Below are positions 24,550 through 48,525 of a stretch of 64,000 nt of DNA, in pieces. The notes beneath the pieces are model-generated. The model was not told the origin of the DNA, ran no database searches, and saw only the letters and a program-made list of their open reading frames with translations. The stretch is from an uncultured Methanomicrobiaceae archaeon (lineage in GTDB: Archaea; Halobacteriota; Methanomicrobia; Methanomicrobiales; Methanoculleaceae): NCBI GenBank assembly GCA_963826525.1, contig CAWGXH010000004.1, positions 704,001 through 768,000 of the forward strand, read 5' to 3'. The position numbers and the translations under genes were made by a program. The number at the start of each line of letters is the position of its first letter. Within the stretch, counting starts at the first letter, position 1.

Positions 24550-26278
24550 GGCGCATCGTCCTGATGGGCAACCCAAACGTCGGCAAGAGCGGGATGTTCT
24601 CGCGGCTGACCGGGACGCAGGTCATCACCTCGAACTATCCGGGCACGACCGTGGATTTCTCCCGGGGCACCATACATGTTGACGGGGCAGCCGTCGAGCT
24701 CGTCGACGCTCCCGGAACCTACTCCCTTGAGCCGTCCAATGCCGCCGAGGAGATAGCGGCCGCTCTGATGGAGACGGCGGACCTGATCGTCAGCGTCGTC
24801 GACGCGACCAACCTGGAACGAAACCTCTTCCTTACGCTTGAGGTGCTGGAAACCAGAAAACCGATCATCGTGGCGCTCAATCTCTGGGACGAGGCGGTCA
24901 ACCAGGGCATCGCCATCGATGTCCCGAACCTCGAACACCTGCTGGGCGTGCCGGTCGTGCCGACGGTCGGGCTCTCCGGGCAGGGGATCAGCGAGCTCAT
25001 CAGCAGATTCAGCGAGGCACGGCCGTCCGATACTCTGGCGCCCATGGACGCCGAGGAGCGGTGGAAGACCGTCGGCCGGATCACGGACGCGGTGCAGACG
25101 ATCACCCACCGGCACCCTACCTTTCGCGACCGGCTCTCGGAGGCAAGCGTCAGGCCGGTGAACGGCTTTTTCATCGCGCTCGGGGTGATCGCCGCCGCTT
25201 TCTGGGTGGTCAGACTGATCGGCGAGAGCCTTATTCAGTACATCTTCGAGCCGCTCTTTGACCTCTACACACCCTTCGTCACTGCAGCTCTCCGATCTCC
25301 TTGGCCCGGGGATTCTGCACGACATCCTTATCGGGAGGCTGAGTGACGGCGGGATCGACTACGTCGAATCGATGGGGCTGCTGACGACCGGCCTCTACGT
25401 TCCCTTCGCCATGGTGCTGCCCTATATCGTCGCATTTTATCTCATGCTCTCGATCATGGAGGACTCCGGCTACCTCCCGAGGCTCGCGACACTGACCGAC
25501 ACCTTCTTTCACCGGCTGGGCATGCACGGCTACGGGATCATCCCGCTCTTTCTCGGGCTCGGGTGCAACGTCCCCGGCGTCCTCGCGACGAGGGTGCTTG
25601 AGACACGAAAGCAGCGGTTCATCGCCGCGACCCTGCTCGGGATCTCCATCCCATGCATGGCGCAGATCGCGATGATCTTCGGGGTGCTCGGTCCGTTCGG
25701 CATGCGGTACGTGGCGGCGGTCTTCCTGACGCTCGCGGCCGTCTACCTGGCGGCAGGGCTCGTGCTGAACCGGTTCGTCGGCGGGGAGTGCCCGGAAATC
25801 TTCCTCGAGCTCCCGCCCTACCGGATGCCGGGCGCCCGCATGACCCTGAAGAAGACCTGGATGCGGGTACGCGGGTTTATCATGGAAGCAATCCCGTACC
25901 TCTTCCTCGGCATCCTGATCGTCAACCTCCTCTATACCGCCGGCATCCTCGATATGCTGGGCACCCTGCTTGCCCCGGTGATGGAGGGATGGCTCGGGCT
26001 GCCGGCCGGGGCGTCGACCGCGCTCCTGGTCGGCATCCTGCGCAAGGATCTGGCGGTCGGGATGCTCATCCCCCTGGGAATGACGCCGGCGCAGGCTGGT
26101 GATCGCGGTGACGATGCTGACGATGTACTTCCCCTGCATTGCCACATTCGCGGTGCTCCTCCGGGAGCTGGGTGCGAGAGACATGCTCCTTTCGGCTGCC
26201 GTCATGACCGGGACGGCGCTGATCGTCGGCGGGCTGATGCAAATGGTGCTGGTAGGAATTTTTGGAGGCGGACTGTGA
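24546..26278 (+). CDS. feoB: Ferrous iron transporter FeoB (frameshifts near 25285 and 26095)
   Basis: GNPNVGKS, NYPGTTV, DAPGTYSL, EDSGYLPR, GLGCNVP, YFPCIAT. Confidence 0.93.
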
Positions 26279-26703
26279 GGAAAAAAACCATCGAAGAGTA
26301 TATCGAGACGATCTACGCACTCGAGAAACGAGAGGAACGGGCGCAGACCGGGATGATCGCACAGGAGATCGACGTCAAACCACCTTCAGTAACCGAGATG
26401 CTGCGGAAACTGGAAAAGTGCGGCCTTATCGAGTACGAATCATACTCCGGCGCCACCCTGACCCCGACCGGGAGGAAGATGGCCTGCGACCTGCAGAAGA
26501 AGCACAAGACCGTGGCATCGTTCCTGGAGATGCTCGGCGTCGATCACGAGATCGCAGATGCCGACGCCTGCCAGATAGAGCACCATGTGAGCCCCGAGAC
26601 AGCCGAACGCCTCAGGCTTTTTGTGGATTTCCTCCGGGGATCACCGTTCGGCCGGGAGTGCATGGAGCGGTTCGGCAGGTACTGCAGGGAACAGGAGAGG
26701 TGA
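26275..26703 (+). CDS. DtxR/MntR family metal-dependent repressor
   Basis: EEYIETIY, VKPPSVTEMLRKL, LTPTG, ACQIEHHVS; GTG start overlaps the feoB stop. Confidence 0.92.
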   Translation: MRKKTIEEYIETIYALEKREERAQTGMIAQEIDVKPPSVTEMLRKLEKCGLIEYESYSGATLTPTGRKMACDLQKKHKTVASFLEMLGVDHEIADADACQIEHHVSPETAERLRLFVDFLRGSPFGRECMERFGRYCREQER

Positions 26704-27773: not shown

Positions 27774-27989
27774 TCAACGGGTGGTTCGGGTGAAGGAGTA
27801 ACGGCCCTCGATTGTGGCCTCGAAGTACGCCATCGGCGACATCGACTCCATCAGACCTCTGTAGACATCCGGCGGAACGCCATAGTAGCGGAAGGTCTCC
27901 CCGTTGCCGAAGAGAATTTCGAGCGAACCATTGCGCTGGTCGTACTCAGCCGAGGTGATCGCTCCTGAGGCAACGACTGTGCTCTGCAT
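27774..27989 (-). CDS. KTSC domain protein 1
   Basis: VASGAITSAEYD...LEILF...FRYYGVP..VY..LM. Confidence 0.82.
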   Translation of the reverse strand: MQSTVVASGAITSAEYDQRNGSLEILFGNGETFRYYGVPPDVYRGLMESMSPMAYFEATIEGRYSFTRTTR

Positions 27990-28048
27990 GCCCGCCGAAG
28001 TAGGCCGGGAACTCATATACTTTACGACTCCAGGGTGCCGGCACCCAC

Positions 28049-28273
28049 TCACCGGTAGGCTTCCTTCACCGGCGCGGACGGATACCTGTCTTCTATCATC
28101 CCGTAGAAGTAGGGGTCGGGCGGCGGCGTCTCCATCAGGTCCTGGTAGACCGTCGAGGGCACCTGATAGGACCGGACGACCCTCCCGTCGACGAACGCGA
28201 TCTCGAGCGCCCGACTGCCCCGGTCGTAGCCGATCGATTCGATGGTTGCGGAGGTAACGGCTGTTCGCTGCAT
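28049..28273 (-). CDS. KTSC domain protein 2
   Basis: MQRTAVTSATIESIGYD...LEIAF...YQVP..VY..LM. Confidence 0.85.
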   Translation of the reverse strand: MQRTAVTSATIESIGYDRGSRALEIAFVDGRVVRSYQVPSTVYQDLMETPPPDPYFYGMIEDRYPSAPVKEAYR

Positions 28274-28333
28274 GAACTTCCGGATGATAGTCGGGAGCGA
28301 TAAGGCTTCTGCAGGATCGGGGTCGGCGCCCGG

Positions 28334-28546
28334 TTACTGCACCTTCTCATAGGGGTACCGCTCGCTGATGAACTCACGGAAGAACCATTCCGGGGACTCG
28401 GCGGCAAGCAGCCCATCGTAGATCGCCGGCGGGACCCCGACATACTCATAGACACCCCCGCTCTCGAACTCCATACGGAGAATTTCCATCTCCCGGTCGT
28501 AACCGATGGATTTCAGACCGGCGGACTCGATCGCTTCCCGCTGCAT
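28334..28546 (-). CDS. KTSC domain protein 3
   Basis: MQREAIESAGLKSIGYD...EF.SGGVYEY.GVP..IY..LL. Confidence 0.85.
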   Translation of the reverse strand: MQREAIESAGLKSIGYDREMEILRMEFESGGVYEYVGVPPAIYDGLLAAESPEWFFREFISERYPYEKVQ

Positions 28547-28689
28547 GGGCGAGGGTTGCGGCCCAGGGGGATAAGGGTTGCGGAGACGCCCGGCGTCCCG
28601 CCTCACCATGACCTTGCAGGGCAGCGGCGGACTCGAGCTTGCCGGGCATCCCGGAGCGTCCCTTTTCCGGATATCGGGGAGATTCCCGG

Positions 28690-29097
28690 TTACACCATCC
28701 CCTGCAGTCCCATCGTCACGAGCATCATCGCCGCGGCCGCCGAGAGCGAGAAGATCACCACCGCCCAGACGACCATAAATGCGACGATCATCAGCATGCT
28801 CGTCTCCCGGTAGGGGACGAGGCCGTCGTTCATCCCTTTCGCCGTCCGGTAGGCGTCGTAGCCGCCCCAGAGCCAGACCACGACGCCGGGGACGATCATG
28901 ACGAAGAGCCCGAAGAGACTTCCGAGCAGCACCAGGACGCCTTTCCCGAACTGCCCGTTGTAGGCCTGTCCGAGGCCGTTGAAGAGGAGCGAGAGGCCTG
29001 CCGCCATTGCCGGGTTCTTCTTCTTCTCCCGGCGGGAGACCTCCGCTGCCGCAAGAGCTTCCCTTAGAGAGACCGGTTCTGCCGTTTCAGTACGCAC
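28690..29097 (-). CDS. TM2-like small membrane protein
   Basis: KNPAMAAGLSLLFNGLGQAYNGQ..KG, YDAY..AK.MN. Confidence 0.8.
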   Translation of the reverse strand: MRTETAEPVSLREALAAAEVSRREKKKNPAMAAGLSLLFNGLGQAYNGQFGKGVLVLLGSLFGLFVMIVPGVVVWLWGGYDAYRTAKGMNDGLVPYRETSMLMIVAFMVVWAVVIFSLSAAAAMMLVTMGLQGMV

Positions 29098-29197: not shown

Positions 29198-29468
29198 ATG
29201 GCAGAAAGAGAGATCACCACAGAGGAAGCAAAGACGATCGGGGGGCAACTCGGCCTGACCTGGGATCCGGTTCGACGTCGAGCAGTTCCGGCAGGGAATG
29301 GAAGTCGAACTCGAGCACGGCCTGCACGACCCGGCGACAAACGTGACGAACGACGACCTCCTGATCACCGGCAAGATCGCCCTTGCCCACCTGAACGAGT
29401 TCCCGGACTACTACGACCGTCTCGAGGTCATGGAAGAAGAAGCGAAGCGCTACTGGAGCAGCAGGTAA
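29198..29468 (+). CDS. DUF5661-like small protein (frameshift near 29270)
   Basis: EEAKTIGGQLG.W then FDVEQFRQGMEVELEHG...TNVTNDD..ITGKIALAHLNEFPDYYDRL in the shifted frame. Confidence 0.8.
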
Positions 29469-29646
29469 CCCCCCGAACAGCCGATCCAGGGCGGCCGCGC
29501 ACCTGGCCGCCCTGCACACTCCTTTGGAAGAGCACTCAAAAGAGCCCGGGCTGTCGGGGGGGCGAGGGCGCGGCCTTTCCGCGCGCAGAGTCCCGAAAAG
29601 GGCTCCGTGAGGAGCCGGCGCCAGCCTGTATACAGGAGATGTCCTC

Positions 29647-29690
29647 AAAATCGTGAAAATTTCAAAAAATTCCATAATTTTCACGATTTT
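29647..29690. repeat. Perfect 15-bp inverted repeat upstream of the surface-protein gene
   Basis: AAAATCGTGAAAATT (29647-29661), 14-bp spacer, AATTTTCACGATTTT (29676-29690). Confidence 0.9.
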
Positions 29691-29776
29691 TTCCATTTAG
29701 TCAGTTATACATCGTCGATATATTCCGGATGGCTTATATATCATCCTCAATCACATTTCGCATATAGACATCTTTT

Positions 29777-32700
29777 GTGATTGTTATGGATAGTGTACGA
29801 GTGCAGGGAAAAAACCCTCAGAACATCCTCTTCCGGGCGATTATCGTCCTGATTCTCGTCGGACTGCTGGCAATGCCGGCGTCGGCGGAAGAGACGCTCC
29901 CGGACGCAGTCCGGGTAGATGCAACGTATAACGAAATGACTCCCGACTACGGCTATCCTGAACTTCTCGAGTATTCAGGAAGCGCTCGACGCCGTCGCCG
30001 AAAGCGGCACCGTCACGGTCGCCGCAGGCACCTACGAAGGGCACCTGAATATACGGTCAGGCCGTTTCTCTCGTAACCGATGAAGACGCCGTCATCGACG
30101 CCATGGGCTGGGGTATCGGTATCTTCATCGATGCGGACGGCGTCTCCGTCGAAGGCTTCACCGTGACCAACGCCACGACCTACGGTATTGCCGGCGACAT
30201 GGTCGACAATCTCGAGATCCGCGGCAACACCGTCACCGTCGTCTCCGACGAGACCACGTCAGAAGCTCCTGTCGGGATCTACCTTAACGGAGGCGCCGGC
30301 CATGATCGTCACCGGCAACACCGTCACGGTGGAGAGCGATCTTCCCGAAGAGGCAGGCATCGTCGTCTGCAATGTAGCGGACACCGAAGTCTCCGGCAAC
30401 GCGGTCAACGTCGACGCCAAGTACGTTCCGGCAGCGGTCCAGGATCTCGAGGCTTTGAGTGCTTCCCCGGTCGCCCCGTGGGGCTCGAACACCCGGCAGG
30501 ACGGAGTGAGCGCCCTTGATGAGGAAGAGCCCGTCAAGTACGTCGCCCCCGCCGGTATCGTGGCTTACGGCAGCGATATCGTGGTCGACGGGAACACAAT
30601 CGCGGTCGTTGCGGAGTGCCTCGGCGAGGTCGAAGGCGTCTCCTATGAGGCATACCCCGTCGGTATCGATGCTAACAGCGAATCCGCCGAATCCATCGAG
30701 ATCGTGGAGAACATCATCGAGGTGGAGGGCAATGCCGCCGACTACACCTACGCCGACGGTATCTGGATATCCGGCAGACCTGGCACTCGCCCGGGGCAAT
30801 ACCATCATCTCGACCGCCACCGCAGAGGATGCGGAGCCGTGGGGTATCAGTATGTACGATGCCCTGAAAGGCCAAATTCTAGAAAATAATGTTACCATCA
30901 CCATCTCCGCCGAACTTCACCGAAGACACCTACGGTATCCTCGTGGAAGACTCCGAGAAGGCGCAGGTGCTCGACAACAACGTCACGTATACTGCATATA
31001 TCGGCGATGAAGGTGTCAGCGAAGCGGGTGCCGGTATCGAAGGCATTTCCGTCGAGAACTGCTACCAGTCGCAGGTCGCCGGAAACGACGTCTGCGTCGT
31101 CACGGAAGTACTGACAGTGGCGGGCGTGTTCGATCTCGGGTCGGATGACTCTGAAATCTCTTCAACCGCCGCAACAGTCTATGCCGACCTCACCGGCGAG
31201 ATCGTCGAAGGGTGGGCCGGAGCGACCGGTATCGACGTCGACGATAGTGACGAAGCCTGGGTCATCGAAAACGAGATCGCCGTCGAGGTGCTCCTCGCAT
31301 CGGTAGATATCGCCGAGAACGTGAGCGTCGTCGAAGGCGGCATCTGGTCGGCGGGTCTGCTGATAGAGGATACCTACGGTGCCGTAGCCTCCGGGAATAC
31401 CATCGACGCCAGCTTCCTGACGGCGGCCGAAGCGATCGGTACCGGCTACAACACCAGCGTCGCCTACGCCAGCCTCTTCAGCGAAGTCACCGGCGTGGTG
31501 CTCTACGACGCAGAGGACACGGAGGTCTCCGACAACTGCATTACGGTCGAGAGCGCTCAGGCTACCATCGCAGCCGCCCTGGCAACCGATTCGGAGGACG
31601 GCGGTCTGGTGTATTTCCTCGACACCCAGCTGGCCGAGGACGAGACTGAAATGAACGCATTTGCGGCATCCCTCGACGAGGAGGGCACGTACGCAGAGTC
31701 CGTCTGGGACGGCCTGAACGAGACCGCGCTCGCCCGCACACGCACGACTGCGGCCGCGGCCGGTATCTACGCCGACACCTATGGCGATACCAGGATCTAT
31801 GACAACGCCATCGACGTGGAGATCGCCTCTATGGTCATGGATATCGCAATGTACGAAGTCAGCAGCGCTGATGCGATGGCGCAAGCAGTCGGTCTTGCGC
31901 AGGGCTTCGGTATCATCGGCCCCGACGGTTACGATGCATCCATATGCGGGAATACCGTCACGGTGGAATCAACCGGTGCCATTGAGACAGTCTCAGCCGA
32001 AGGAGAGGTGTCCGCCGCAAGCGTACTGAGCGAATCGCAGCTCCGCGTCACCGCACGGGGTATCGTTGGCCTTGCAGAGGAGAACGAGATCTCCGATAAC
32101 ACCATCGACGTCTGTGCACTCGGCGAATCCGAAGCCCTTGCATTCGAGGAAGTGCCCGACAGCCTGGCCGTTGCAGCCTCGCTGATCAAAACCCGTGCGG
32201 TCGGCATCACGATTCCCCGCGCCGCAGAGACCTACGACAACGAAGTCAGCGACAACATCGTGAACGTTCTCTCCGTCCTGGCACCGGCCTCTGAGGCGGC
32301 GGGTGTTTCCGGGGAAGTCGGATCGATCATAGAGGGCAGGGCTGCCGGCATCGGTATTCGCGCACCCAATGCCTGGATCTCCGGCAACGAGGTAGACGTC
32401 ATCGCATGTGTGGAGAATGCCACCGCCGTCGCTGCCGAGGCATCCATACAGGAAGTGATGAGCGAAACCATTGCGATCGCAAACGCTCAGGGTATTGTGA
32501 CGAAGAACGCCATTGTCGAGGATAACGTCGTCTTCGTGGAGGGAACCGCAACCGGAACGGTCATTTCCGAGACGGAAGAACTCCTCGAGAACGCCGATGC
32601 CCTCATCCTCACCGCAGCCATCGGCACCGCGATCCACGACCGCGGCCTCTCCACGATGACGCATAACACCGTTGAAGCAAGCGCTGAGGCTGGCTGCTAC

Positions 32701-33594
32701 GGCTATGTCGAGGGCTACCGCCTCGACGGGTTCGGCATCGCCATCGCCGAGGGTCTGGGTATCCGGACCGAGGGGGGAACCGTTGCGTATAACAATATCG
32801 AAGGCGCCGTGCTGGGCGACTATAAGAAGGGCATCCCGACCAGGGCAGCATACAACTGGTGGGGCGACGCGAGCGGGCCGTCCGGCTACGGCCCCGGTAT
32901 TGGAAGCCCCCTCTACGGTGTCATCTACTACGACGACCCCATGACCTGGGAGCCCTGGCTGACCCGGCCGTACGAAGCCGTCCTCGATGAGGACAAAGCA
33001 TACCTCGGCATCGAGATCAGGGGCGACGAAGGCCTTGCGAAGGGCTGGAATACCCTCTCTGTCCCGATTGCAGTTGAGGACAACACCTGGCATGCGATCA
33101 GCAACATGGGCGAAGGCCTGAACTACAGCATCGCCTACACCTGGGACGCCGCCAGCCAGCGGTGGGTGCAGGTACTGGCCGGCACCCGGGTCAACCCGCT
33201 CGATGCCGTCCACGTGAAGCTGCGCGAAGATGCCCGTCTGCCGGTCGCCATCAGCCCGGAGATTACGAGCCCGCCGGTGAAGTACCTCAAGGCAGGCTGG
33301 AACCTCATCGGCCCTGCGTACGCCTTCGATGCGGATACTCTCGCGTGGGACGAGATGAAGGTCGACAAGGCGCTGATCTCGATCGAAGAGACGCCGGCAG
33401 GCCTGACCGGCTACACCATCGTCCTCTCGCCGTCGATCAATAGTGAGGCCTGGACATACACCGCCGGCGCGGCCAAGACGCCGACGATGGAGACCGGGTA
33501 TGGCTACTGGGTTTATATGGAGAACCCAGACGCTCTGGCCGGTTTCAGCTCGACGCCCCTCCAACTTCCGACAATCGATCTCGGGTGGATCTAA
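29777..33594 (+). CDS. Large acidic secreted right-handed beta-helix surface protein (about 1270 aa, several frameshifts)
   Basis: Signal peptide ending MPASA, repeated GI...(GN/DN)TI/V beta-helix coils, NWWGDASGP cap, C-terminal duplicated GWN(T/L) module; ORFs 29777, 30103, 30188 and 30889 join. Confidence 0.8.
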
Positions 33595-33633
33595 ATCCTC
33601 CCTTCTTCCTCTCCACACCGTGAGGACACAACC

Positions 33634-34779
33634 ATGAGAAGAACCACGCACACGTTCGCACTCCTGCTGGCACTCGCATTCCTGACCGTGCCGGCAGTCG
33701 CAGAAGACACGTCAACCGGGTCGTATCCCCATGCCTTCTACGGCACCCTGCTGGATGCCGACGGGACGGCGGCACCGGGCGGAACCATCGTCGTCGCTTC
33801 GATCAGGGGACAGAATGCAGGAAGCATCACCGTCACCACGGCAGGCGAGTACGGCAATGCCGATGACGAAGCAGCAAAGCTCGTCGTCTGGACAAACACC
33901 CTGGTCACCGGCGATCCGGTCACGTTCTACATCGACGGCGTCCGTGCCGCAGAGACCGCTTCCTTCGAGTCCAGCGCGGTGACGCGCCTCAACCTCACCG
34001 CAACCGCTCCGTTGCCGAAAGAGCGGCCGGACGAGAGCACGACCGAACCGGTCTCGCCGAAGGCGGGACAGAACACGACCGTGACCGGCAATGGGACCGG
34101 CACCTCGGTCACCCTCACGACGACGGTCGACCTGACGGACGAGACGATAGCCTTCACGGCCTTTGAGGAGCCGCCGGACAACCAGGCCGTTCCATCGACT
34201 CTGGCGCCCGTCGGGCGGTACGCCGAGATCACGAGCACCATCACCGAATGATCAGATCGCGAGCGTAACGATCCGGATCTATCTACACCGACGCCGAGAG
34301 TCGCCGCGGCAGGGATCGACGAGGCGAGCATCCGGGTCTACTGGTGGAACCCGACCGCTCAGGTCTGGGAGCAGCTTCCCGGCGGCGTCGACACCGTCCA
34401 GAACGTTGCCTGGGGCACGACGAGCCACTTCTCGACCTTCGCTCTCCTCTCGGTAAAAGCGGTCACCCCGACGCCGGGAGGCGGTGGGGCGGTGCTACCG
34501 GAGGCGGCGGTGCAGCAGGCCCGATCGTTTACCCGACCGATGCGTTCGGGACACCGACGGTAACCCCGACCGGGACGGCAACAACGCCGACAGACGTTCC
34601 GACAACACTCGCCCCGGGAGAGACGGCAGGTTCCGGGCGGAGAAGCGGGGCAGCAGCCCGGTGAATCCGGAGAGAGCGGTGGGCAGACGGGAGACGAGCT
34701 TCCGATGGCCGCCGCCGTCATCGCCGTCCTCGTCATCGCCGGCGTCGCGGCTGCCTCATTCTACATGAAGAAGCGGTAA
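33634..34779 (+). CDS. Membrane-anchored surface protein with Thr/Pro linker (frameshifted)
   Basis: Signal peptide, PHAFYG domain, TSHFSTFAL motif, TPTVTPTGT linker, C-terminal TM AAVIAVLVIAGVAAASFYMKKR. Confidence 0.75.
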
Positions 34780-35194
34780 CCCGGAACACCTCTTTTTTCA
34801 CGCGGGGATCTCTTCCGCACGATTCGTCAAGAAACACTTAAATAGCCGCAATTTCGGCCGGATCCGGCTAAATTTCGACCCGCACAGAAGCCCTCAGACA
34901 GCCGATCTCGTGGCGAGATATGGATTAACATCCTCCGAACACTACCTTCGCTCATATCGCCGTTATACCTCGGTGAATTTTCCGGCAATCCGGAATCAGA
35001 GCGCAATGCTCCAGATGCCGGGAGCGCCCGGATCCGCCATCTGAAACCTGCCTTAAAATCGAAAAAAAACTCTAATGTGCCCTTCGTTCAGGACGGAAAG
35101 GGGCCGACTCCCTCACTCCCCGGCCATCCCGGAGACCGCCGGGTTCCTGTGAGGATGGAACTTTCCCGCTCTTCGATTGCACGTTTACACTCAC

Positions 35195-35491
35195 TTGCAC
35201 CCCGTTTGCACCCGAATTTGCACCCAAATAACCCATGCTCGAGCGTTCGATACGGATACGGCCAGCGGAACGCCAGGATCTTACCGATGTTTACACTTGC
35301 TCCGGATTCACAGACACGAAGACACATACGCTCCCCCGCCGGACACACGCTGTGTGTTTTCTCAAATCGATGTAAATGTACAAATATAGGTACATATATC
35401 TCCGTAAAGTACAGAGTACGCGAATCAACCATCAAAAAGGCGTTTTTCAGATCTACACTTTTCCCGTTTTTCGGGTGCAAACGGGGTGCAA
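35195..35491. repeat. Perfect 22-bp inverted repeat flanking a 253-bp AT-rich core
   Basis: TTGCACCCCGTTTGCACCCGAA (35195-35216) and its exact reverse complement (35470-35491). Confidence 0.92.
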
Positions 35492-36011
35492 CAGTGCAAA
35501 CTGGCGGGACGGGTCCCCGGCGGTATCGCTTCGCAGCTGCCACCGGCAGATACACCATGTGCAGCACCAGGCCGCTCGCGTACACCGGCGTACATCACGG
35601 GGTGTCACTCAACGGAAGCGATTGCTGCGGAACGGCATCGATCAAAAGCGCTGCTGCTGTTTTTCCCGGACATGTACACCATTCTCCAGAGCACAGACAT
35701 ACCCGGCGGGAGAAGAGAGAGTACGCTGTCCGGACTTGTGTCCCCCGATTCCAGTGTACATCGAGTACTATGAGATACGTTTTTAGTAACCAGTACAAAG
35801 AGTATCAGGAGATTCCTCCCGATATTCACCGTTTTTATTGCGACAGCACGTGGTGTAATGCGGTGTACATCTGGTGTCATGGTGTACCTATCATCGCCGT
35901 CCTCCGTCACCGTGGCACCGACGCGGCTGATCGCCGGGCACTCTCGAGCAGCCCCCTGCAGGACGACGGAGACGGCATCCCCGTGGCGCCCTCACGGCCC
36001 CTGCGGGAGGG

Positions 36012-36480
36012 TCACAGTTCCCCGGGAAGCCCCGGAAGCGGGAAACCCCCCAGCGGCAGACCGAAGAGGGCGTTTCCGAGCGTCGCTCCGAAGATGAGAA
36101 GCAGCATAAGCGCGACGAGCCAGATCGCAAGGAAGACGACCATATCCCGCCGCCGGATCTCCCGGAACGGAATCTCGTCGGCGTTCATCCGCCGCGCCGT
36201 CCTGTGGGCGTCGTAGATACCGTAGAACCAGACAAGCACCCCGGGCACAATGAAGAGAAAGAGCCCGGCGATTGTCCCGAAGAGGACGGCAAGCCCCCTC
36301 GCAAACTGGCCGTTGTAGACCTGCCCGGCACCGTCGAAGAAGACCGAGAGGAAGAACGCCGTCCAGGGGTTCTTATCCATTCGCAGGTAACTGCTCGGAA
36401 CGCTCGCCCCGCAGACTCGGGCAGTACTCGACATTCTCCGACCGAAGCGGCTCCCCGCACGTTTCACAGACCTTCGCCAT
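36012..36480 (-). CDS. Zinc-ribbon plus TM2-like membrane protein (frameshift near 36420)
   Basis: MAKVCETCG...EYCP, then KNPWTAFFLSVFFDGAGQVYNGQ; paralogue of 28690-29097. Confidence 0.75.
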
Positions 36481-36644
36481 CCCCTCACCCTTCCGTCCAG
36501 AGATATCGATAAGAATATATAGTGTTTTCTCATGCCCCACTCCTCCGGACGCCATCCATGGGGGAATGCCGCCGGAGGCAGGCGGTGAGTCCCCGAAGAA
36601 AAAACGCGAAGGCTTATTGCGCATGGTCGAGCGAGTATACACGT

Positions 36645-36863
36645 ATGGATGCGAGGAGAGGCGAAGCGCCCTGGACGAGGATCCGGCAGCGCCGGCTCTT
36701 CGACGGTGCAGACTTCTACGCCGAACGGCTCTTTGAGACCCAGCAGGCCGCACGCAGTTACGCACACCTGCTTGAGTCCCGGGGCGGGATTGTCCAGGTT
36801 GCTCCCTCGCACACGGAAGGAGGAAAGCGGGGTTACGCCGTCTTCGTCCGGCGGGAGCGGTGA
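36645..36863 (+). CDS. Small hypothetical protein
   Basis: 72-aa ORF with plausible composition in an intergenic gap; no family recognised. Confidence 0.5.
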   Translation: MDARRGEAPWTRIRQRRLFDGADFYAERLFETQQAARSYAHLLESRGGIVQVAPSHTEGGKRGYAVFVRRER

Positions 36864-37426
36864 TCCGGGCCGGTGATCCGTGCGAGATAAGCCTCCCTCA
36901 CGAGCCCGTAGATCCCGATATCCTCAAAGACGCCCCACTTCTGCACGTGCTGCCGGAGGCAGCCTTCATAGACCATGCCGCACTTCTGCATCACCCTCGC
37001 CGAGGCGGGGTTCCGGGTAAAGTACATTGCGTAGATCCGGTTCAGCGACAGCCCCCCGAACCCGTACGCAATGACCGCCCCTGCAGCCTCGGTGGCGTAG
37101 CCCCGGTTCCAGTAGGGCTTTCCTATCCAGTAGCCGAGCTCACCACGCCGGTGCCTCCGGTCTATCTGCATGAGTCCGATCGCACCGATGAACGTATGCT
37201 CGTCGGCACGGGTGATCGCAAAGACTGCCAGCTCCCCGAGGAGGAACCCCTCTTCGTGCCCGACGATCCAGGATCCCGCCACGCCATCCGGATAGGGGTG
37301 AGGGATATCAAGGGCGTTCGCCGCAACGTCGTAGTCACCGGCGAGCCGCTGCACCTCCGGGGCATCGGCAAGAGTCATCGGCCGGAGGAAGAGCCGCTCG
37401 GTCGCAAGCGTGGGCTGCTGGATCAT
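36833..37426 (-). CDS. RimJ/RimL-family GNAT acetyltransferase
   Basis: LATERLFLRP, ELGYWI..YWNRGYATEA, NPASARVMQKCGM.YEG. Confidence 0.92.
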   Translation of the reverse strand: MIQQPTLATERLFLRPMTLADAPEVQRLAGDYDVAANALDIPHPYPDGVAGSWIVGHEEGFLLGELAVFAITRADEHTFIGAIGLMQIDRRHRRGELGYWIGKPYWNRGYATEAAGAVIAYGFGGLSLNRIYAMYFTRNPASARVMQKCGMVYEGCLRQHVQKWGVFEDIGIYGLVREAYLARITGPDHRSRRTKTA

Positions 37427-40124: not shown

Positions 40125-40901
40125 GTGAGCCTTGAAGAGAAGCAGGAACGGTTCGACCGCGAGATCGAGGCGATGGGCGTCCGGCTCAAGGACGCCGACC
40201 AGATGAAGGTCAGAGAGGACGTCTTCGACGAGGTCACTCTCATCGCCCTCTACAAGCTCGTCCACAAAAAGCTCATCTCCGTGATCGGCGGCCCTATCAG
40301 CACCGGGAAAGAGGCGAACGTCTTTTACGGCGAGCAGGACGGCCGCGGGATCGCGATCAAGATCTACCGGATCCAGACGGCGAACTTCAAGGCGATGAAC
40401 GAATACCTGGCGGGCGACCGCCGGTTCTCGAGCATCCGGGGCTCCCGCAAAGAGATCATCTTCGCCTGGACGAAGAAGGAGTACAGCAACCTCGCCCGGG
40501 CGCACGAGGCCGGTATCCCGGTGCCGCAGCCGCTGGCGTTCGACCGGAACATCCTGCTGATGGAGTTCCTCGGAGAAGGCGAGAGACCCTATCCGCAGCT
40601 CCGGACTGCGGCAATCGACGACCCGGCGGCAACGTACCGGGAGATACTCGGATATATGGAGACGCTTTTTGCGAAAGCCCGGCTGGTGCACGCCGATCTC
40701 TCCGAATACAATATCCTATATGCACAGAGGCCTTACCTGATCGACATGGGTCAGGCAGTCGGCCTGGATCATCCGCGAGCTGCCTCATTCCTCTTCCGGG
40801 ACGTGAAGAACATAAACAGGTTCTTCTCCCGGTACTGCGATGTGCAGGACGAAGAGGAGATCATGCAGCGTATCCTGGGCAGAGCCCGTCAGGAACCGTA
40901 A
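40125..40901 (+). CDS. rio1: RIO1 serine/threonine kinase
   Basis: ISTGKEANV, AIKIYR, LVHADLSEYNIL, IDMGQAV. Confidence 0.95.
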   Translation: MSLEEKQERFDREIEAMGVRLKDADQMKVREDVFDEVTLIALYKLVHKKLISVIGGPISTGKEANVFYGEQDGRGIAIKIYRIQTANFKAMNEYLAGDRRFSSIRGSRKEIIFAWTKKEYSNLARAHEAGIPVPQPLAFDRNILLMEFLGEGERPYPQLRTAAIDDPAATYREILGYMETLFAKARLVHADLSEYNILYAQRPYLIDMGQAVGLDHPRAASFLFRDVKNINRFFSRYCDVQDEEEIMQRILGRARQEP

Positions 40902-44750: not shown

Positions 44751-44818
44751 CCGATGATCTGGTATCCCGGGATACCTTATTTTACTTTGTGAGAAAGATG
44801 GCCGAAGGCCCCGACTTC

Positions 44819-45155
44819 CCCCACCCCTTTATTTCCACTGGAACTGTGGTCCTCACTGCCCTCCAGATCGATCATTTCGCGGTTGTCAGACAAAGATCCC
44901 GATCGTCTCTCGTACTCCTTTCGTTATTTTTATATAGTATTATTTAGAGAGGTACACATGACTGTTTTCATCATCATTCATCATCGATGATCAGAAGGTC
45001 TGTATCATCATCACATTCCACTCGCAACAAAGGGGTGGGGGACTCAGGCTATCGCCCGGTGATCGATTCTTCTGCATGCTCCCCGGCGTACGGGAACTCC
45101 GGGGCAGATCAGAGGCTCTCCTGAATCTCCACTGTTCCACTGGAAACGAAGGGGT
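44819..45155. other. oriC: Replication origin oriC, ORB cluster 1 with AT-rich unwinding element
   Basis: ORBs at 44819-44844 (minus, GTTCCAGTGGAAATAAAGGGGTGGGG), 45016-45041 (degenerate) and 45134-45155 (GTTCCACTGGAAACGAAGGGGT); AT-rich tract about 44918-44947; upstream of cdc6. Confidence 0.9.
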
Positions 45156-45233: not shown

Positions 45234-46517
45234 ATGTCGGACGATAAAAGCAATCCTATGGGTTTATTCAAAAAATATCTCACCAATAGAAGGATATTCA
45301 AAAACCGTGAAGTGCTCAGGCACAGCTACCGCCCGCATATCCTCCCTCACCGGAAACCGCAGATCGACGAGCTGGCATCTATCCTTGCTCCGGCACTGAA
45401 TAATGAAACGCCCTCAAATATTCTGATATACGGAAAGACCGGGACAGGGAAGACAGCGAGCGTCAGGTACGTCGGCCTCGAGCTCGAGAATGCGAGTGGG
45501 ATCACCGGAACGCGCTGCCGGATCGTCCACCTCAACTGCGAGGTGATCGATACCCAGTATCGGGTGCTGGCGCAGATCGCAAGCTGCCTTGAGGACCACG
45601 ACGAGCACGCAAGCGACAGCACCCGGGTCCATATCCCGATGACCGGGTGGCCGACCGACCAGGTGTACATGGAGCTCAAAAAGCAGCTCGAGAACAGCGG
45701 CGGCGTGATGGTGATCGTGCTCGACGAGATCGATAAGCTCGTCAAGAAGAGCGGGGACGACACCCTCTACAACCTCACCCGGATCAACTCGGACTTGAAG
45801 CGGGCGAAGGTCAGCATCATCGGGATCTCAAATGATCTCCGGTTTACCGACTTCCTCGACCCACGGGTGCTCTCCTCACTCTCGGAGGAGGAGATCGTCT
45901 TTCCGCCCTACAACGCCCCGCAGCTCTGCGACATCCTGCAACAGCGCTCCGAGATAGCGTTTATCGAGGGGGCGCTCGATGAGAGTGTTATACCGCTCTG
46001 CGCCGCTCTTGCAGCCCAGGAGCACGGCGATGCCCGCCGTGCACTGGATCTTCTGCGGGTCTCGGGGGAACTCTCCGATCGCGAAAACGCCGATATGGTG
46101 ACCGAACGACACGTCCGGATGGCGCAGGAGAAGATCGAGACCGACAGCATGGTGGAGTGCGTCTCCACGCTCCCCACCCAGAGCAAAGCCGTCCTCTATG
46201 CGATGCTGATCCTCGAGCAGATGGGCAAGCGGATCTTTACGAGTGGCGAGGTCACGATGGTTTACCGGGAGATCGCACGGATCCTCGACCTCGACGTCCT
46301 GACGCACCGGCGGATCACCGATCTCATCTCTGAGCTGAATATGCTCGGCGTCATCAACACGCGGGTCGTCTCGCGTGGCCGGTACGGCAGGACGAAGGAG
46401 ATGTGGTTCGATGCCGCCACGAGCAAGATTGACGAGGTCATTTCGCGCGATCCGCGGCTGTCCGACCAAAGGTTGAAAGAGATCGACATCAATCGTTTGA
46501 GAGCAATGTTCAGGTGA
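45234..46517 (+). CDS. cdc6: Orc1/Cdc6 replication initiator
   Basis: YGKTGTGKT, VLDEIDKL, LDPRV.SSL, HGDARRALDLLR, SRGRYGRT winged helix. Confidence 0.97.
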   Translation: MSDDKSNPMGLFKKYLTNRRIFKNREVLRHSYRPHILPHRKPQIDELASILAPALNNETPSNILIYGKTGTGKTASVRYVGLELENASGITGTRCRIVHLNCEVIDTQYRVLAQIASCLEDHDEHASDSTRVHIPMTGWPTDQVYMELKKQLENSGGVMVIVLDEIDKLVKKSGDDTLYNLTRINSDLKRAKVSIIGISNDLRFTDFLDPRVLSSLSEEEIVFPPYNAPQLCDILQQRSEIAFIEGALDESVIPLCAALAAQEHGDARRALDLLRVSGELSDRENADMVTERHVRMAQEKIETDSMVECVSTLPTQSKAVLYAMLILEQMGKRIFTSGEVTMVYREIARILDLDVLTHRRITDLISELNMLGVINTRVVSRGRYGRTKEMWFDAATSKIDEVISRDPRLSDQRLKEIDINRLRAMFR

Positions 46518-48286: not shown

Positions 48287-48525
48287 ACCCCTTTATTTCC
48301 AGTGGAGATGATGATTTATTCAGCGTTTTTTGACCCCGGGGATCGGAGGTGCACCGTTCCGGGAATATGGACCCTGTCCGGCAAATACCGGGAAGATCTT
48401 TGGAATTTGCGAATGCGAAAGATCCCGGGAAATTCGGGACATCCAAGCAGCCTGTTACCCTGTCAAATCCGTAAGAATGAGCGACGATCTGGAATATCAG
48501 GCAGTTCCACTGGAAATAAAGGGGT
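48287..48525. other. ORB cluster 2 (inverted pair)
   Basis: ACCCCTTTATTTCCAGTGGAG (48287-48307, minus) and GTTCCACTGGAAATAAAGGGGT (48504-48525, plus) in a non-coding gap. Confidence 0.85.

Follow-up and report, generated by a model that had tools for sequence, protein, structure and literature searches.

In a 64,000-nucleotide stretch of DNA from an uncultured Methanomicrobiaceae archaeon (contig CAWGXH010000004.1; the whole stretch is referred to as the window), we analysed a locus of 1.2 kb at positions 34780-36011, which contains two modules of inverted and phased repeats. Our preferred reading, which we hold tentatively, is that this locus is gene-less inserted DNA, namely a non-autonomous mobile or integrated element or the relic of one. 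It looks more like accessory DNA of one lineage than like a core site of the chromosome. Judged from its repeats, it was very probably built for the binding of a protein. The Cdc6 protein (45234-46517) and the RIO kinase (40125-40901) encoded in the window cluster at 90% identity or more with proteins of Methanoculleus taiwanensis, and by these sequences the window is assigned to a Methanoculleus near M. taiwanensis, its closest relative.

A preliminary description of the window had presented the locus as a non-coding gap between two convergent genes, and we can confirm both points. The gap is without gene, pseudogene, Rfam RNA or origin recognition box (ORB). The reading frame of the left neighbour stops with TAA at 34777-34779, and the right neighbour (36012-36812) lies on the minus strand. 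The left neighbour (33634-34779) encodes an anchored protein with a membrane anchor (...VIAVLVIAGV...) at its end. The right one, termed m266, encodes a membrane protein whose C-terminus coincides with the end of its orthologue in the related locus L005. Over the gap the G+C content is 0.53-0.57, compared with 0.60-0.67 in the flanks and 0.618 in the whole window.

The first module is organised around a perfect inverted repeat of 22 nt, which had been noticed before. Its left arm (35195-35216, plus strand) and its right arm (35470-35491, minus strand) are 100% complementary and lie 253 nt apart. The similarity was also said to extend outward imperfectly, and indeed 34 nt match at 88% (35183-35216 against 35501-35470), with one 2-nt indel. 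Three phased units described for the left side are present as TTGCACCC, starting at 35195, 35206 and 35218 on the plus strand with a spacing of 11 and 12 bp. They are the last three members of an iteron array at 35177-35232, with TGCAC/TACAC cores at 35178, 35186, 35196, 35207 and 35219 and spacings of 8, 10, 11 and 12 bp. On the right side, two copies of TTGCACCC start at 35473 and 35484 on the minus strand. Together with an extra TTTGCAC unit the right arm extends over 35470-35503, and its minus-strand cores at 35475, 35486 and 35494 are spaced by 11 and 8 bp, giving phased repeats about one helical turn apart. Each arm is thus composed of direct iterons and has no internal dyad. Five of the nine copies of TTGCACCC in the window fall within the locus, while only 1.08 copies are expected in the window and nine were reached by none of 100 shuffles. 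The AT-rich tract reported for the 253-nt core (35217-35469) was found at 35355-35469, where four GTACA/TGTAC matches are counted over the two strands. With a G+C content of 0.348 it can be compared with the unwinding tract of the nearby replication origin oriC (44880-45000), which has 0.38. The fold-back potential of this module of about 300 bp is strong (z -3.8 and -3.5).

The second module (35548-35892) shows a similar arrangement with other motifs. TACACC-type sites are located on the plus strand at 35551, 35581 and 35675, and GGTGTA-type sites of the minus strand at 35852, 35862 and 35881, together with GGTGTC at 35873; the minus-strand sites are spaced by 10, 11 and 8 bp. The motif ATGTACAC is found three times in this module, at 35672 (plus), 35754 (minus) and 35863 (minus), and an imperfect inverted repeat of 27 nt (35580-35606 and 35842-35868, 78%) leaves 235 nt between its arms. 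Both modules share the core TnTRCACC. We detected no further homology between them, the local alignment score being 19 against a shuffle mean of 19. Arrays of phased TGCAC/TACAC units had been described for the locus; the arrays are real, but the label TACAC is less suitable, and motifs of the GTACA or ATGTACAC type describe them better.

The motifs occur in considerable excess. GTACA/TGTAC is present 14 times in the locus, compared with 1.56 times in dinucleotide shuffles (about 9-fold), and none of 1000 shuffles reached 14. The density is 11.4 per kb; other intergenic sequence totalling 3 kb has 1.0 per kb. In module C alone there are 10 GTACA sites (1.16 in shuffles) and six TRCACC sites (0.74 in shuffles), and again none of 1000 shuffles attained either number; for the degenerate motif, the excess is overstated because the motif was defined after inspecting the sequence. 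By itself, the way in which the 11 TRCACC sites switch orientation reaches no significance (three switches over 10 steps; binomial P about 0.17). For GTGTACA taken singly, the window shows no enrichment: it holds four copies against 1.88, and 15 of 100 shuffles reach four.

To place the locus among its relatives, species-representative genomes were scanned with the RIO kinase, which gave 32 loci (numbered with the prefix L); M. taiwanensis is not among them. Fourteen of the 32 show 76-80% identity and keep the gene order KTSC genes, tyrosyl-tRNA synthetase (TyrRS), RIO kinase, Hel308, oriC and cdc6. Ten loci span both flanks, and in all ten the distance from the gene for a domain of unknown function (DUF) to the m266/GNAT genes is only 131-626 bp; in L005 the stop codons of the DUF side and the m266 side even abut. 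The corresponding interval in the window (29469-36011, the DUF gene being 29198-29468) is larger than 6.5 kb. This lineage-specific block comprises a promoter region, a gene for a beta-helix surface protein (29786-33594), the anchored-protein gene and the non-coding locus. Since it is absent from all ten spanning loci, the locus is not a conserved origin-proximal element of the genus. A blastn search with the locus against the 32 loci gave no counterpart (best E 0.04). TTGCACCC occurs at most twice per locus, a TTGCAC cluster in none, and GTACA clusters only in the more distant L014 and L028. Conservation of the arms in close relatives, proposed earlier as a check, was not found, either in the ten spanning loci or in any of the 32.

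The surface protein has intact homologues on other contigs (1264 residues; 83, 80, 73, 67 and 66% identity) and partial ones in two named Methanoculleus, which means that the block exists elsewhere. In the window the gene has five frame changes in its first 1.2 kb, followed by 2.7 kb that are intact, and it may be decaying.

The locus is bracketed by a direct repeat. Within the window, exact copies of the 14-mer TCATCGCCGTCCTC start at 34718 and at 35891 and nowhere else. The left copy (34718-34753, plus strand) lies inside the last, membrane-anchor codons of the upstream gene, and the right copy (35891-35929, plus strand), which is degenerate with three indels relative to the left one, is located directly to the right of the second module. 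Both copies are in one reading phase, as the distance from start to start is 1173 nt (3 x 391). The repeat, a copy of the 3' end of the upstream gene, thus encloses about 1.15 kb (roughly 34754-35890), and the end of the gene itself is intact. The extended alignment of 36-39 nt scores 36, a value that was reached by none of 1000 and none of 400 shuffles but by 24 of 275 (9%) pairs of neighbouring 900-nt blocks taken from the window itself, where paralogous repeats within genes produce such scores; we therefore consider the repeat a real similarity, though not an extraordinary one. In the preliminary description no target-site duplication was evident. This stands for the inverted repeat, as none adjoins its 22-nt or its 34-nt form, but a longer direct repeat lies around the locus.

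Several lines of evidence indicate that the locus contains no gene. It is crossed by a frame (34846-36216) that is open for 388 codons within the locus, a length reached by none of 5000 shuffles, and this frame is in phase with the end of the upstream gene and with both copies of the direct repeat. However, its G+C content is flat over the three codon positions (0.555/0.545/0.559), compared with 0.71-0.82 at the third position of real genes, and it has no start codon before 35077. The stop triplets TAA, TAG and TGA are depleted in all three plus-strand frames (18 against 36.2 +/- 4.5; none of 1000 shuffles was as low), and the region 35406-35770 is free of stop triplets in every plus-strand frame. 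The depletion arises because the motifs mostly have C after TA and C or T after TG. As stops are depleted in all plus-strand frames, the 388-codon frame is a by-product of the motifs and not a coding signal.

Database searches agree with this. None of four open reading frames (ORFs) of the locus matched a Pfam family, none of its ORFs was present in the protein collection, and no convincing small ORF was seen. A HMMER search of the 388-residue frame against 1.84 billion representatives returned a single weak match (P0010, E 1.3e-4), and a word-based search with a minus-strand frame of 168 codons returned no homologue. A tblastx comparison, suggested earlier as a check for a decayed gene, gave only short noise when the locus was compared with its neighbours and the remaining window. 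With Rfam 15 there was no match in the window at the gathering score and at E<=1 only two at noise level (a human long non-coding RNA model and isrG). No tRNAs were found.

In the mechanism that we propose, DNA would have entered at, or recombined with, the 3' end of the upstream membrane-anchor gene and would have left the direct repeat behind, presumably as a single insertion. The motif family TnTRCACC would provide the binding sites, represented by TTGCACCC in the first module and by ATGTACACC-like sequences in the second, about one helical turn apart and oppositely oriented on either side of an AT-richer centre. The binder would be a sequence-specific protein encoded elsewhere, such as a transposase, a recombinase or a Rep-type protein. 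It might be loaded in one polarity on the left arm and in the other on the right, and act on the core between them, which would melt readily.

The locus shares features with two kinds of known elements. Like miniature inverted-repeat transposable elements (MITEs) and other non-autonomous transposons, it comprises a module, about 300 bp long, that ends in inverted repeats (perfect over 22 nt, 88% over 34 nt), is richer in A+T inside and can fold back strongly, and it is intergenic, lineage-specific and gene-less. Unlike them, it shows no duplication at the arms, its arms are phased iterons, and no related transposase was seen among the 79 ORFs scanned. With att-flanked integrated elements it has in common that a repeat of 36-39 nt copies a gene 3' end, which remains intact, and brackets foreign-looking DNA. 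It differs from them in the size of the segment, only about 1.15 kb, in the lack of an integrase and in the degenerate right copy, and its repeat score is matched by 9% of the control pairs. We found no full-text literature on Methanoculleus together with the term 'miniature inverted-repeat'.

A number of observations weigh against an inserted element. The absence from relatives holds for the whole 6.5-kb block and not for the 1.15 kb by itself, and at the junctions of that block no repeats stand out (score 30, shuffle maximum 35). Neither the window nor the 32 related loci contain another copy of the arms, no target duplication abuts the inverted repeat in either length, and phased direct iterons are atypical of MITE termini. 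Removing the bracketed segment restores no sensible gene end, and the matching scores of the control block pairs count on the same side. The statement that the window holds no recombinase or transposase was borne out for the 79 larger ORFs scanned, which include no transposase, integrase or Rep family either; the smaller ORFs were not all covered by that scan. Finally, blastn of the 1232 nt against 72,556 plasmid and 50,697 phage records gave no match at E<=0.01, and the inverted-repeat module alone, at E<=10, gave six chance matches to bacterial plasmids (E = 4) but no phage match.

Of the ideas put forward earlier, an undescribed cis-acting site fits as far as a non-coding protein-binding site is concerned, while the missing conservation in the related loci speaks against a second origin or segregation locus. 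The mobile element, named there only as an outcome of a check, gains from the bracketing repeat and the lineage-specific block and suffers from the missing duplication at the inverted repeat and the lack of a copy count. If the locus is a non-autonomous element, Methanoculleus would gain one of its few described mobile or integrated elements, and the motif might be used to find the protein responsible for moving or binding the locus. Being, on the present evidence, accessory DNA of one lineage, it tells little about the replication or segregation of Methanoculleus chromosomes in general.

A first alternative, which we regard as unlikely although it ranks highest among the alternatives, is that the locus is an operator or promoter region for unannotated short transcripts, such as a small RNA or a micro-protein, where a factor would bind the phased TnTRCACC arrays cooperatively beside AT-rich promoter cores. 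The phasing of the motifs at 8-12 bp is in line with this. In addition, the sole TATA-like sequence that the locus contains (CTTAAATA at 34837, at most one mismatch to the consensus), with an A-rich sequence upstream (34829-34844, plus strand), is directed rightward into the locus and is followed by five T5 runs on the plus strand. It is, however, located inside neither core, and the converging flanking genes leave no known gene to be served. An Lrp/AsnC-type regulator gene and other helix-turn-helix genes are present in the window, none of them adjoining the locus.

The same alternative draws on region A, a segment of 210 nt (34924-35133, plus strand) just left of the iterons. Its frame-1 translation aligns without gaps to P0010 (46% over 70 residues), a hypothetical, spurious-looking ORF of 111 amino acids on an unrelated 10.6-kb environmental contig and the sole sequence relative for any part of the locus. 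Over its 210 nt, region A is kept free of indels in that contig. As the matching frame has no start codon in the window, region A and P0010 are taken as translations of homologous non-coding DNA. Behind the aligned part, a run of 13 residues in P0010 includes two Cys-Thr pairs and one Met-His pair. Only TGY-ACN or ATG-CAY can encode such pairs, and so the peptide would point to the same TGYAC core in that contig. The match to P0010 and this putative core are also taken to favour the inserted element. No further relatives of P0010 were found. On the other side, the RNA fold of region A is no better than that of shuffles (z -0.59 and -1.50), no Rfam family and no convincing small ORF support a transcript, and the locus is absent from relatives. 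Independently of this question, the motif CGGATCCG was seen twice in region A, 170 nt apart (34856-34872 and 35025-35040).

We consider it distinctly unlikely that the locus is neutral DNA, generated by a local inverted duplication and slippage downstream of the decaying surface-protein gene. The lineage specificity of the locus, the five frame shifts in the adjoining surface gene, the lack of any function-linked gene nearby and the non-significant orientation of the 11 TRCACC sites would agree with such an origin. It does not account for the surplus of related motifs in two differing modules (for module C alone, matched by none of 1000 shuffles), for the identity of the 22-nt arms or for the preservation of region A, free of indels, in another contig.

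More improbable still, in our view, is an orphan origin-like or centromere-like module, serving the chromosome or an excisable gene-less satellite, at which a non-Orc1 initiator or a partition protein would bind the inverted iterons and either melt or organise the core rich in A+T. The architecture is indeed origin-like. When the window and the 32 loci (573,296 bases) were surveyed for perfect inverted repeats of 14 nt or more separated by up to about 600 nt, only six had arms of 20 nt or longer: the one in the locus, one in the window at 48287-48525 (spacer 199 nt), those in L005, L011 and L012 (197-199 nt) and that in L009 (516 nt). The other five are ORB pairs beside cdc6, and this is why we call the architecture origin-like; long perfect inverted repeats so spaced otherwise mark origins in this genus. 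Inverted sites around an AT-rich element are also what is found here: the polar sites converge on the core, whose G+C content is as low as that of the oriC unwinding tract. According to two reviews, archaeal origins consist of inverted ORBs flanking an AT-rich element, and new origins come with new DNA and their own orc gene (PMC4010727, PMC3528665).

The comparison with the oriC ORB pairs of the genus (44817-45042 and 48287-48525 in the window; L005, L009, L011 and L012) can be taken further. Common to both are perfect or near-perfect inverted repeats of 14-22 nt that stand about 200-250 nt apart (516 nt for L009) and polar sites that face the centre, which is AT-rich in the ORB module upstream of cdc6. 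In contrast, the arms of the locus are unrelated in sequence, lack the G-string and have no adjacent cdc6, and the ORB pairs are conserved while the locus is not. That the arms do not resemble ORBs had been stated before and was borne out by 20 Smith-Waterman tests against five ORBs, in the best of which 9 of 500 shuffles reached the score. With up to three mismatches the ORB pattern occurs at 44831, 45015, 45134 and 48295/48504, and near the locus only at 36017, in the end of the right gene.

The genetic surroundings also argue against an origin. The neighbours of the locus encode surface or anchored proteins, a membrane protein and a GNAT protein. No initiator gene adjoins it, and the only cdc6 of the window is 9.7 kb away and has two ORB modules of its own. 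Partition or recombinase genes were not found within at least 28 kb on each side among the 79 ORFs. The distance to oriC was given as about 9 kb, which is correct (9.3 kb rightward; its ORBs, at 44831, 45015 and 45134, lie upstream of cdc6, which occupies 45234-46517), and two origins 9 kb apart would be unusual. The cumulative G+C skew has its minimum at about 40-42 kb, at a place between the locus and oriC that does not distinguish the two. Conservation is missing in all ten spanning loci.

Plasmid iteron origins and repeat-type centromeres, for example parC of R1, are built from direct repeats that are short, follow each other at roughly one helical turn and form two clusters with a central region between them. 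The locus resembles them in its short phased repeats and their two clusters. It differs in that its clusters are inverted and not all direct, no rep or par gene adjoins it, it is chromosomal and it has no plasmid or phage match. We give an equally low probability to the more specific idea of an excisable gene-less satellite replicon or orphan origin, in which inverted arrays of non-ORB iterons would load an initiator encoded elsewhere onto the AT-rich core and the direct repeat would permit integration and excision. If an origin-like module were confirmed, initiation at a non-ORB site could be put to the test in a methanogen, and a satellite or orphan origin would represent a type of archaeal origin independent of a neighbouring Orc1/Cdc6 and ORB system.

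Two known archaeal systems were considered for comparison. The preferred motif of the chromatin protein MC1 (PMC3928310) has no match at up to three mismatches in the locus, and only its CACCC part is iteron-like. The Sulfolobus ucm/UBP system is described as confined to Sulfolobales and Desulfurococcales (PMC12141716).

Very improbable is an inverton, another suggestion of the preliminary description, in which a recombinase would flip 35217-35469 and re-aim an internal promoter, giving antisense transcription into the surface-protein genes or the right gene. The length of the repeat and the size of the spacer are in the usual range of invertible switches, the AT-rich tract is asymmetric, beside one arm, and surface-protein genes adjoin. 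Unlike in invertons, each arm is a direct repeat of TTGCACCC without a dyad, the segment contains no TATA-like box, and the 79 scanned ORFs include no recombinase. A switch would moreover be placed downstream and not upstream of both neighbours. A literature search for archaeal or methanogen cases led only to bacterial studies and to a single methanogen-virus paper in which, in the text available, the word inverton does not appear. That the locus is a protein-coding gene, decayed or unrecognised, is largely refuted and has the lowest probability of all, as the long open frame and its phase with the upstream gene's end and the direct repeat are set against stop depletion in all plus-strand frames, flat codon-position G+C, the missing start codon before 35077, the lack of a Pfam match and the lack of any homologue beyond P0010.

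The borders of the locus have some further features. Just 3' of the stop codon of the left gene, an oligo-T run (T6, 34793-34798, plus strand) resembles archaeal terminators and may act as one. Between the second module and the stop codon of the right gene, a tail at 35893-36011 is rich in G+C (0.748).

Outside the locus, the C-terminal membrane domain of m266 (36158-36351) is paralogous to 28803-28996 in a gene for 135 residues (28690-29097), with 70% identity over 196 nt. The two paralogues flank the lineage-specific block in direct orientation; because the relatives carry both of them, they are not an att-type duplication. Next to m266 the window has a single GNAT acetyltransferase gene (36833-37426), while most related loci (L001, L003-L008, L011, L013) have a tandem pair. 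Three tandem KTSC-domain genes are located at 27774-28609 on the minus strand.

Relative to the intact ORFs of L001, frame changes were seen in the genes for TyrRS (about 39506), for the Hel308-type helicase (about 42165 and 43500) and for an aminotransferase (about 47757), and relative to L005 the DUF gene (29198-29468) has one extra base (about 29265). These differences are either indel errors of the assembly or real pseudogenes, and the ORF calls in this window are unreliable. In a single ORF at 25258-26703, FeoB-type Gate and FeoB_C domains are followed by a DtxR-type iron-dependent repressor, which may reflect a fusion, a one-frame overlap or a read-through.

A last observation concerns oriC and may be of more general use. 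About 1.8 kb downstream of cdc6, the second ORB pair of the window (48287-48525) has perfect arms of 20 nt, composed of an ORB plus G-string, and a spacer of 199 nt that, with a G+C content of 0.50, is not rich in A+T. The same pair is present in L005, L011 and L012, with arms of 21-22 nt and spacers of 197-199 nt. The oriC of Methanoculleus thus seems to include two ORB-pair modules that are conserved and lie on either side of the cdc6 neighbourhood.

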